Program-made: the position numbers and the translations under genes
Shown here: piece after piece, positions 25,751-26,894 of the stretch
Layout: each line of letters opens with the position of its first letter
Numbering within the stretch: position 1 is the first letter of the stretch
IMG/VR virus record: IMGVR_UViG_2541047705_000012
Strand: one strand, 5' to 3'
Length of the DNA stretch: 37,440 bases
From: a virus
Lineage: Duplodnaviria > Heunggongvirae > Uroviricota > Caudoviricetes
The notes under the pieces: generated by a model
What the model was told of the DNA's origin: nothing
Database searches by the model: none
Seen by the model: the letters and a program-made list of their open reading frames with translations, nothing else

Positions 25751-26400
25751 GCCGCCATCTCCCTGAGCAGTTTTTCCGCCTGCTGGCGAACCTGCGCCAG
25801 AAACGCCTCACCACATGCCTCAAGTTCATCGCGCCCGATGTAGCTGATTGCCGGTCCCTTCCAGGTCTTGTCAAAAACAGCAATAGCACCAGCGAAGAAA
25901 GCTCCTGTCGGCACCTGCTTCTCGTCTTTCGGGATAAACCAGACAGGCAGTTCAAAACCAATACGCCCGCGAATAAAAGCAATATGATCTGCATCTTCCG
26001 GCCACCACACTTCGCTGGTGGCAGCTTTGATCAGGAAAACATAGCGCCCGCCTTTATCACGCATGGCACTGGCATGCTTCATGATGTAACGCATGCCGGT
26101 GATGTATTGCCCCTCATGCTGACTGGCGCGGCTGTATGGGGGATTACCAAAGGCAGCACCTTTAAGCTCCGCAAGACGTTCTGACCAGTCATGCGCCAGC
26201 GCATTGTCTTCCGCCGTGTAATACGCGGCACATTTGGCGTTACCACCGTCGGTGAACAGATCCAGAACAAACGGGCCAAACAGGGTGTTAATTCCCCAGA
26301 AAATGTTGTCCGGCGTGCGCCACTGATCGCCCACTTCCTTCAGTTCATGGGCTGGTTTGTTCCGCAGCTCCACCAGCGCCTGGCAATATTTATTACTCAT
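25747..26400 (-). CDS. Phage DNA N6-adenine methyltransferase (Dam-like orphan methylase)
   Basis: NPPY catalytic motif (GNPPYSRA); start chosen at the ATG at 26400, where it overlaps the upstream stop (TAATG). Confidence 0.8.
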   Translation of the reverse strand: MSNKYCQALVELRNKPAHELKEVGDQWRTPDNIFWGINTLFGPFVLDLFTDGGNAKCAAYYTAEDNALAHDWSERLAELKGAAFGNPPYSRASQHEGQYITGMRYIMKHASAMRDKGGRYVFLIKAATSEVWWPEDADHIAFIRGRIGFELPVWFIPKDEKQVPTGAFFAGAIAVFDKTWKGPAISYIGRDELEACGEAFLAQVRQQAEKLLREMAA

Positions 26401-26894
26401 TAAGCCCCCACGTAATTCCCTGACAGATACCACTCTTCACCCGATGCAGCGCGCTTGCTGCTTTTCCGTAAGCACCGCTCACGACGCGCCAGAAAATTGT
26501 TTCGTTCTGGCTGGGAGTGGCTTTCACGGAATGCCGCCATCCACACGGTTGCAGCACGACGGTATAAACCCCTGGACTCCAGTTCTTCAGCCTGGCGGGT
26601 CAGGCACAAAATCACCCGTGGATCGTTAGTGCCGACATAGAAATTGCGCACAGGTCTGGTTTCTCGAACTGGTTGTGGTTCCGGTTCCTGCGCTCTCTCA
26701 GTCAGGCGCGGGAAATGTCTGCGTGTATCTCCTTCACAACGGTGAGCCACACGCCCACTCTGACGTAACTTGCTTGCTGACTGCAGAACGCGCTGTCGTG
26801 AGTAACCTGCAAAAGCATCCGCAATGTCACCGGAAGTACACCCCGGATGGGCTTCAATGAATTTCTGAACGTCATTTAACAGACTCATGATCAC
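26400..26894 (-). CDS. PerC/Pch-family transcriptional activator homolog with an N-terminal extension
   Basis: C-terminal region RGLYRRAATVWMAAF...RRERCL matches the PerC-family GL[WY]RRAA..W...RR..CL pattern (from memory). Confidence 0.5.
   Translation of the reverse strand: MIMSLLNDVQKFIEAHPGCTSGDIADAFAGYSRQRVLQSASKLRQSGRVAHRCEGDTRRHFPRLTERAQEPEPQPVRETRPVRNFYVGTNDPRVILCLTRQAEELESRGLYRRAATVWMAAFRESHSQPERNNFLARRERCLRKSSKRAASGEEWYLSGNYVGA

Follow-up and report, generated by a model that had tools for sequence, protein, structure and literature searches.

The locus described here is that of yfdN, a gene carried on the minus strand of a 37,440-nucleotide stretch of tailed-phage DNA (IMG/VR virus record IMGVR_UViG_2541047705_000012; Caudoviricetes), the whole of which is referred to below as the window. 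The gene corresponds to an open reading frame (26400..26894, minus strand, GTG start, 164 codons plus stop) that a sequence-only reading of the window had singled out as a homolog of PerC and of the prophage-encoded Pch activators of the enterocyte effacement locus (LEE), and the position given there has been borne out. All 495 bases are 100% identical to yfdN in UTI89, S88, APEC O1, IHE3034, NU14, ATCC 11775 and others, and the encoded protein agrees with YfdN of E. coli K-12 (b2357, from the cryptic prophage CPS-53/KpLE1) at 161 of 164 residues (98%). The flagged frame is hence a known gene, already annotated and not new: the UTI89 allele bears the RefSeq name 'PerC family transcriptional regulator' (WP_001332382.1), and yfdN has been called 'the K12 unique PerC homologue' (PMC5931665). 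Because both sources already name yfdN as PerC-type, the sequence-only reading amounts to the correct recognition of something annotated before, and what is added here is a set of refinements, not a discovery, namely the layout in two domains, a tail conserved across the family, the constant place of the gene behind HTH_36 initiators and its natural dispensability. The features of the gene and its product are the following.

26400..26894, minus strand: yfdN as annotated in RefSeq, GTG start, 100% identical to UTI89 yfdN
26403..26888, minus strand: probable true yfdN coding sequence, ATG start, 162 residues
26894..26899, minus strand: putative Shine-Dalgarno-like AGGGGG for yfdN, the letters read directly and the function presumed
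26709..26888, minus strand: predicted N-terminal winged-helix domain, residues 1-60 of the 162-residue form
26631..26708, minus strand: Pro/Glu-rich variable linker, residues 61-86, with indels across homologs
26442..26597, minus strand: PerC/ANR-type core (match to Pfam PF06069), residues 98-149 of the 162-residue form, lying within three predicted helices at 90-148
26541..26570, minus strand: GLYRRAATVW signature, with columns invariant across PerC, PchA, PchD and PchE
26403..26444, minus strand: C-terminal tail with the motif W-Y-L-S-G-N-Y-V-G, family-specific, absent from PerC and Pch and predicted to be disordered

A small correction applies to the start of the gene. The true start is probably the ATG at 26888, which gives a protein of 162 residues; it is favored because most homologs (Salmonella, Citrobacter and more distant members) begin with the same N-terminal MSL... 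and because an AGGGGG run, embedded in the last codons of the upstream initiator gene (..FRG), lies 5 nucleotides upstream of this ATG.

The homology of the YfdN core to PerC and Pch is real. The C-terminal half of the protein reads ...QAEELESRGLYRRAATVWMAAFRESHSQPERNNFLARRERCLRKS..., carrying GLYRRAATVW...RRERCL, of which the part from RRAATVW to RRERC spans nucleotides 26472-26561, and the pattern G[LFCM][YWF]RRA[AS]..W has a single occurrence in all six reading frames of the window and none in 300 window shuffles. The sequence-only reading had itself named a PerC profile search as the check by which its family assignment could be refuted; this search returned a significant match to the Pfam PerC profile PF06069 (E 7.8e-9; 36.1 bits, the gathering score being 22.6; residues 100-151 in the 164-residue numbering), and the claim of PerC-family homology is thereby upheld. 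The PerC profile is also matched by all 36 of the aligned two-domain relatives described below. Comparison with PerC from the enteropathogenic E. coli plasmid pMAR2 and with PchA, PchE and PchD from the Sakai chromosome gave, by BLASTP, identities of 37% (PerC), 41% (PchA), 40% (PchE) and 33% (PchD) over 44-52 residues, with E values from 1e-5 to 5e-10, the best pairwise match being that to PchE (40% over 52 residues, E 5e-10). The alignment to PchA that had been proposed as a second check thus shows the signature columns to be invariant, and in the joint alignment with PerC, PchA, PchD and PchE there are 11 invariant columns (A102, L105, E106, G109, R112, R113, A114, W118, R131, R138 and C141), so that the core signature A..LE..G.[YW]RRA[AS]..W ... 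R ... R..C is present in YfdN. In a profile-profile comparison with hhalign, the 36-protein YfdN-type profile aligned with the PerC/Pch profile at 99% probability (E 7e-18, 56 columns). Nevertheless, only positions 5-56 of the 90 in the PerC profile are matched, and the C-terminal half of PerC and Pch is absent from YfdN; the protein is a member of the Pfam PerC family by its profile score, but it has neither the full-length architecture nor the genomic setting of PerC and Pch.

The core is also related to the ANR proteins. The NCBIfam ANR model NF033650 scores the window protein at 23.6 bits (E 3.5e-5), below its curated cut-off of 32 bits, and matches 24 of the 36 YfdN-type proteins, with a best E value of 4e-9.

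The remainder of the protein belongs to a layout of its own. In an AlphaFold2 model built from 14 homologs, given here in the 162-residue numbering, residues 3-60 are predicted to form a helix-helix-helix-beta hairpin arrangement (predicted local distance difference test, pLDDT, 83-90), residues 63-84 are disordered (pLDDT below 50), residues 90-105, 109-122 and 126-148 form three helices (pLDDT 87-93) and the tail, residues 150-162, is again disordered (pLDDT below 50). When 1.84 billion representative sequences were searched exhaustively, full-length relatives emerged down to about 25% identity, all with the same layout, and those at 25-48% identity share the winged helix, the linker, the PerC core and the tail motifs. 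The tail pattern [WC]xL[AS]Gx[YF]xG is retained in members down to about 25-30% identity and is without counterpart in PerC and Pch. PHROG 1324 is matched over the full length (E 6e-79, residues 2-163), and judging from these alignments the two-domain architecture is that of a conserved family, PHROG 1324 or YfdN-type. The sequence-only reading had described the core as fused to an unrelated N-terminal region of about 70 residues; the N-terminus is indeed not related to PerC, but the combination is that of a conserved two-domain family and not an ad hoc fusion.

The ratio of nonsynonymous to synonymous substitution rates (dN/dS), calculated against the Salmonella, Citrobacter and Hafnia orthologs, is 0.14-0.16 overall and 0.09-0.16 for the core. 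In the single comparison with unsaturated dS it is 0.15 for the winged helix and about 1 for the linker. Judged by these ratios, yfdN is genuine and under purifying selection, with constraint on both domains and a fast-evolving linker between them. The winged helix itself shows at most a weak and uncertain resemblance to lambda Ren, with an E value of 0.0097 and no passing stretch in PHROG 142; hhalign against lambda Ren alone gave E 0.0026 at 11% probability, a signal that was lost with a 3-sequence Ren alignment. A sequence search of the PDB with YfdN returned no match even at an E value of 10, and the PADLOC defense models gave nothing meaningful for yfdN.

As regards its distribution, yfdN is a widespread gene of one class of enterobacterial lambdoid phages and prophages, among them CPS-53/KpLE1 of K-12, SfII, SfIV, SfV, mEp460 and several Shiga toxin 2 (Stx2) phages. 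At 90-99% identity it occurs in 49 phage records, including SfII, SfIV, SfV, mEp460 and many Stx2a, Stx2c and Stx2k phages, and yfdN-bearing modules are also found in Stx2 phages of LEE-positive O157. Of 5426 complete E. coli genomes, 2674 contain a yfdN-like sequence, at up to four places per genome, and these include LEE-negative strains, both K-12 and extraintestinal pathogenic ones. Mentions of yfdN in published screens (a glycogen phenotype when it is overexpressed, a UTI89 fragment with yfdN2 that induces filamentation and a CFT073 transcriptome table) were considered and set aside as too unspecific to use.

In the window, yfdN lies between the following genes.

26891..27832, minus strand: upstream neighbor, an HTH_36/O-like replication initiator, with a stop at 26891-26893 that abuts or overlaps the yfdN start
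25747..26400, minus strand: downstream neighbor, a phage Dam-type N6-adenine methyltransferase, with a start that overlaps the yfdN stop (TAATG)

The order on the minus strand is a cII-like gene, DUF4222, the HTH_36/O-like initiator, yfdN, the Dam methyltransferase, a protein with a LexA DNA-binding domain (LexA-DBD), RusA, KilA-N, DUF968, the Q antiterminator and the lysis genes, and a consensus scan of the minus strand from 28740 to 25038 revealed no promoter-like or terminator-like site. On the basis of the stop/start overlaps and of the lack of an intervening promoter-like or terminator-like site, we infer that yfdN is co-transcribed in an early-right (pR-type) operon and is expressed on induction or infection, not in the resting lysogen. 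Unlike pchA, it does not form a moron transcribed on its own. The description of the locus in the sequence-only reading as a ninR-like region is approximate; in its lambdoid early operon, yfdN is the first gene after the initiator and occupies the slot of lambda P and ren.

This slot is remarkably constant. The HTH_36 initiator lies directly upstream of the yfdN-type gene in all seven related loci (among them Salmonella, Citrobacter, Hafnia and three metagenomic or other loci), and the arrangement, usually with a 4-nucleotide overlap, is kept even where YfdN is only 28-35% identical. A DNA methyltransferase lies directly downstream in six of the seven, followed by LexA-DBD and RusA, and none of the seven replication modules contains a P-, DnaC- or DnaB-like gene. 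The methyltransferases that follow yfdN belong to three unrelated families (Dam PF05869, MT-A70 PF05063 and MethyltransfD12 PF02086), as though one enzyme had taken over the function of another while the slot stayed the same. The LexA-DBD protein (25424-25750, minus strand; 108 residues, PF01726 E 3e-19) consists of this domain alone, without the S24 peptidase domain, and in most of the related loci its gene is again found two places downstream of yfdN; in lytic growth the protein could mimic LexA without being open to cleavage.

Several observations concern the initiator. Within its gene, at 27383-27534, there are about eight iteron-like units of 15 nucleotides (CAGATTTTGACGGGx) with two embedded inverted pairs; they encode the low-complexity SKSDASKSAPSKFDASKS linker of the initiator protein and probably constitute the phage origin, located inside the initiator gene as in lambda. 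The extreme C-terminus of the initiator, ...VDYSQIPAGFRG (26894-26960, the last 22 or so codons), is kept among initiators the bodies of which are only about 25-30% identical. The same IPxGFRG tail is found in Sakai Sp4 ECs_1073 (positions 4894-5985 of the Sp4 stretch), the next gene of which differs from yfdN, and is absent from the lambda-type O of Sp8. The tail may serve to dock a protein of the host replication machinery, or it may owe its constancy to the ribosome-binding site that follows. The IPxGFRG tail was also considered as a docking site for YfdN and rejected as specific evidence because Sp4 ECs_1073 has the tail while a different replication gene follows it.

The divergence of the modules bears the mark of mosaic exchange. 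The initiator gene contains a mosaic junction about 75 nucleotides upstream of its stop codon, and yfdN has therefore been moved between initiator bodies that are unrelated. That YfdN and the initiator diverge together was examined and rejected, the Spearman correlation over whole proteins being 0.02, while that with the downstream LexA-DBD and RusA is about 0.6; the better tracking of the latter two fits linkage and mosaic exchange, not co-evolution.

The gene can also be lost. In phage cdtI (locus stretch 1579-1671) an in-frame deletion leaves a 30-codon yfdN remnant, MSLLNEVQKFIEAHPGCTSGDIADAF/YVGD*, with the methyltransferase kept; cdtI has been deposited as a complete phage genome, and from the title of its paper we take it to be an inducible prophage. 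In the Stx2 prophage Stx2a_WGPS2 (locus stretch 1579-3380) the insertion sequence (IS) IS629 is inserted in yfdN. As the cdtI deletion and the IS629 disruption attest, yfdN is naturally dispensable.

Elsewhere in the window, an IS3-family element (34210-35423, minus strand; OrfA of 108 residues; OrfB, which has an rve domain, of 296 residues) adjoins or runs into the prophage integrase frame (35385-36494, plus strand) at its 5' end. In ATCC 11775, S88 and others, prophages that are otherwise identical account for just 95% of 12441-37440, in two pieces, for which reason the element looks strain-specific, and integrase or excision functions may have been damaged by it.

Taken together, these data lead us to lean, with modest confidence, towards YfdN as an accessory early phage regulator or nucleoid modulator acting through its winged helix and its PerC/ANR-type core, a proposal built on analogy with the better-known relatives of the core. 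YfdN would be made with the early-right (pR-type) transcript upon induction or infection and not in the quiescent lysogen; the winged helix would tether it to DNA or to a partner; and the core would remodel a regulatory nucleoprotein complex, whether formed by nucleoid proteins or by transcription factors. Two precedents indicate how the core might do so. Pch activates LEE1 only under silencing by H-NS, StpA and Hha, and H-NS occupancy is lowered (PMC4764244); by analogy with Pch, the YfdN core would relieve such H-NS/StpA/Hha silencing. The ANR proteins, for their part, have three helices and bind regulators of the AraC family (PMC4983702), and ANR modulation of H-NS is cited in PMC11773190; by analogy with ANR, the YfdN core would bind H-NS or AraC-type regulators directly.

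The alternatives may be taken in order of how well they survive. The first, that YfdN is an ANR-like negative regulator whose core binds and inactivates an AraC-family activator and/or H-NS, thereby repressing host or phage genes, is unlikely but retains appreciable credit. The ANR model matches of the window protein and of two thirds of the family speak for it, as does the agreement of the ANR signature A..hE+...A..hW..A...R..@C and the three predicted helices with the YfdN core (PMC4983702), and LEE1 is repressed by a PerC-like protein from a phage-inducible chromosomal island (PICI; PMC11773190). However, the ANR score of the window protein falls under the curated cut-off and its Pfam PerC score is higher, and the ANR proteins are single-domain and smaller than 10 kDa (PMC4983702), against the two domains and 162-164 residues of YfdN. 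Moreover, no AraC-family gene is present among the neighboring genes scanned or annotated. ANR proteins are typically encoded beside their cognate AraC gene.

A more far-reaching version of the proposed regulatory role can also be entertained as a rather speculative conjecture, and we consider it improbable in its entirety. According to it, YfdN-type proteins would be a phage-borne, DNA-tethered PerC/ANR module, a fixed accessory of the HTH_36 replication module (that with the IPxGFRG tail and no phage-encoded helicase loader), which is very common in enterobacteria. Early in lytic growth they would target H-NS or other nucleoid proteins on the phage DNA, or would aid the initiator, and the stand-alone PerC, Pch and ANR proteins would be truncated, domesticated derivatives of this early phage gene.

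More doubtful still is the possibility that YfdN is a replication accessory working with the HTH_36 initiator, where it would fill the slot of lambda P either as an adaptor or by recruiting a helicase, its PerC likeness reflecting merely a shared helical module. The position of yfdN, always immediately after the initiator and overlapping or abutting it, even at 28-35% identity and across three methyltransferase families, is what such a factor would be expected to show, and no P-, DnaC- or DnaB-like gene exists in any of these modules to fill that place. In Sakai Sp4, furthermore, the slot after the IPxGFRG-tailed initiator holds a gene annotated as 'phage DNA replication protein', presumed DnaC-like, and the PerC-like pchE follows primase and ssb genes in Sp7. 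Yet YfdN has no similarity to lambda P (hhalign probability 0.07%) and no Pfam match to an ATPase or loader family (Phage_lambda_P, IstB/DnaC), and a role in replication sits poorly with phage cdtI, which retains just the 30-codon remnant, and with the Stx2a prophage with IS629 in the gene. The exchange of yfdN between phages with initiator bodies only about 30% identical, its divergence being uncorrelated with that of the initiator, and the presence of the conserved initiator tail outside yfdN modules also weigh against it.

The suggestion of the sequence-only reading that the prophage could influence host virulence-gene regulation corresponds to a further alternative, in which YfdN truly activates LEE1 (ler) as Pch and PerC do, and the prophage raises type III secretion in a LEE-positive host. 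The core signature is common to YfdN, PerC and PchA-C, Stx2 phages of LEE-positive O157 carry yfdN modules, and Uhlich et al. deleted yfdN from a K-12 ler-lacZ reporter strain as a possible confounder (PMC5931665). This deletion was made as a precaution, and no published test of YfdN was found. Clear activation of ler is on record only for PerC and PchA-C (PMC5931665, PMC11773190); PchE, the closest comparator of YfdN, gives less than 2-fold ler induction and PchD none (PMC5931665), and PchE is known to repress csgD and curli and to affect flagella. The PICI homologs of EDL933 and CFT073 have been reported to be without effect, and EcCIMP1_025 represses LEE1 (PMC11773190). For the other PerC homologs outside group 1, LEE/ler activation is therefore lacking or turned into its opposite. 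In addition, yfdN lies in an early lytic operon and is not an independently transcribed moron. Given that the C-terminal half of PerC and Pch is missing, that PchE and PchD are weak or inactive, that the PICI homologs are inactive or repressing and that about half of complete E. coli genomes carry yfdN, a true LEE activator is very unlikely, and we infer that LEE/ler activation is not the conserved role of YfdN. The claim of a Pch-like LEE activator influencing host virulence is accordingly not supported, since what is shared is the core only, the setting is that of an early operon and the relatives are inactive or repressing.

Finally, the notion that YfdN controls the downstream methyltransferase gene, in the manner of the C-proteins of restriction-modification systems, is scarcely credible: a DNA methyltransferase does follow directly in six of the seven related loci (its family differing among Dam, MT-A70 and D12) and YfdN has a predicted winged helix, but this reading is contradicted by the existence of loci with one gene without the other (yfdN without methyltransferase in the Citrobacter locus and in phage SfIV, methyltransferase without yfdN in phage cdtI), and the two genes are translationally coupled instead of being parted by a regulated promoter, with no similarity of YfdN to C-proteins.

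These results have a practical side. The PerC annotation tempts one to view any prophage with yfdN as switching on attaching-and-effacing virulence, and on the present evidence such an inference is unsafe: YfdN shares the core only, its architecture and operon setting differ, and the tested relatives of its branch do not activate LEE. The real role of YfdN, if found, would provide a function for a gene that about half of the complete E. coli genomes carry and might clarify the biochemistry of the PerC/ANR core, which is still poorly understood.

Comparison with known systems places YfdN among, but apart from, several of them. The closest is K-12 YfdN itself, the neighbors of which match those in the window, yfdO being an initiator remnant and yfdM a methyltransferase remnant; it differs in residing in the CPS-53 remnant, whereas the window copy lies in an apparently complete prophage, and in being annotated there as 'uncharacterized protein'. 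With lambda P and ren the likeness is one of position only: yfdN, as they do, comes first behind the origin-binding initiator, within the pR operon, with the nin, RusA and Q genes downstream; lambda P has no detectable similarity to YfdN. With PerC of the enteropathogenic plasmid pEAF/pMAR2 and with PchA/B/C, which prophage morons of enterohemorrhagic E. coli encode, YfdN has in common the core A..LE.+G[LF][YW]RRAA..W......R.....[RK]R..C, 37-41% identity over about 45 residues and the Pfam family, but those are single-domain proteins of 89-104 residues that begin at the core and have about 40 further C-terminal residues (..IKQAV...MG...FRNY) missing in YfdN, which in turn has an extra winged helix, a linker and a tail of its own. 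Their settings differ as well: pchA is found in the Sp4 late region, on the opposite strand, and perC is a member of the perABC operon, while yfdN belongs to the early replication operon.

The PerC-like genes of PICIs compared here, those of Sakai Sp7, which equals EcCIEDL933 (PchE), of EcCICFT073 and of EcCIMP1_025, likewise encode single-domain proteins of about 90 residues. PchE is nevertheless similar in its placement, as its gene sits at the distal end of the replication module of a mobile element, after primase and ssb; pchE (stretch positions 11772-12044 of Sp7, a PICI-like element) ends a replication module much as yfdN-type genes sit in one. The pchD gene (SpLE1, stretch positions 17943-20146), for its part, adjoins ibrA/ybdM, genes that are 3'-phosphoadenosine-5'-phosphosulfate-reductase-like and ParB-like. 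Lastly, the ANR proteins Aar and Rnr resemble YfdN in a three-helix core with a related signature, but they are single-domain anti-activators of AraC-family regulators, smaller than 10 kDa (PMC4983702), whereas YfdN is a two-domain protein of 162-164 residues.

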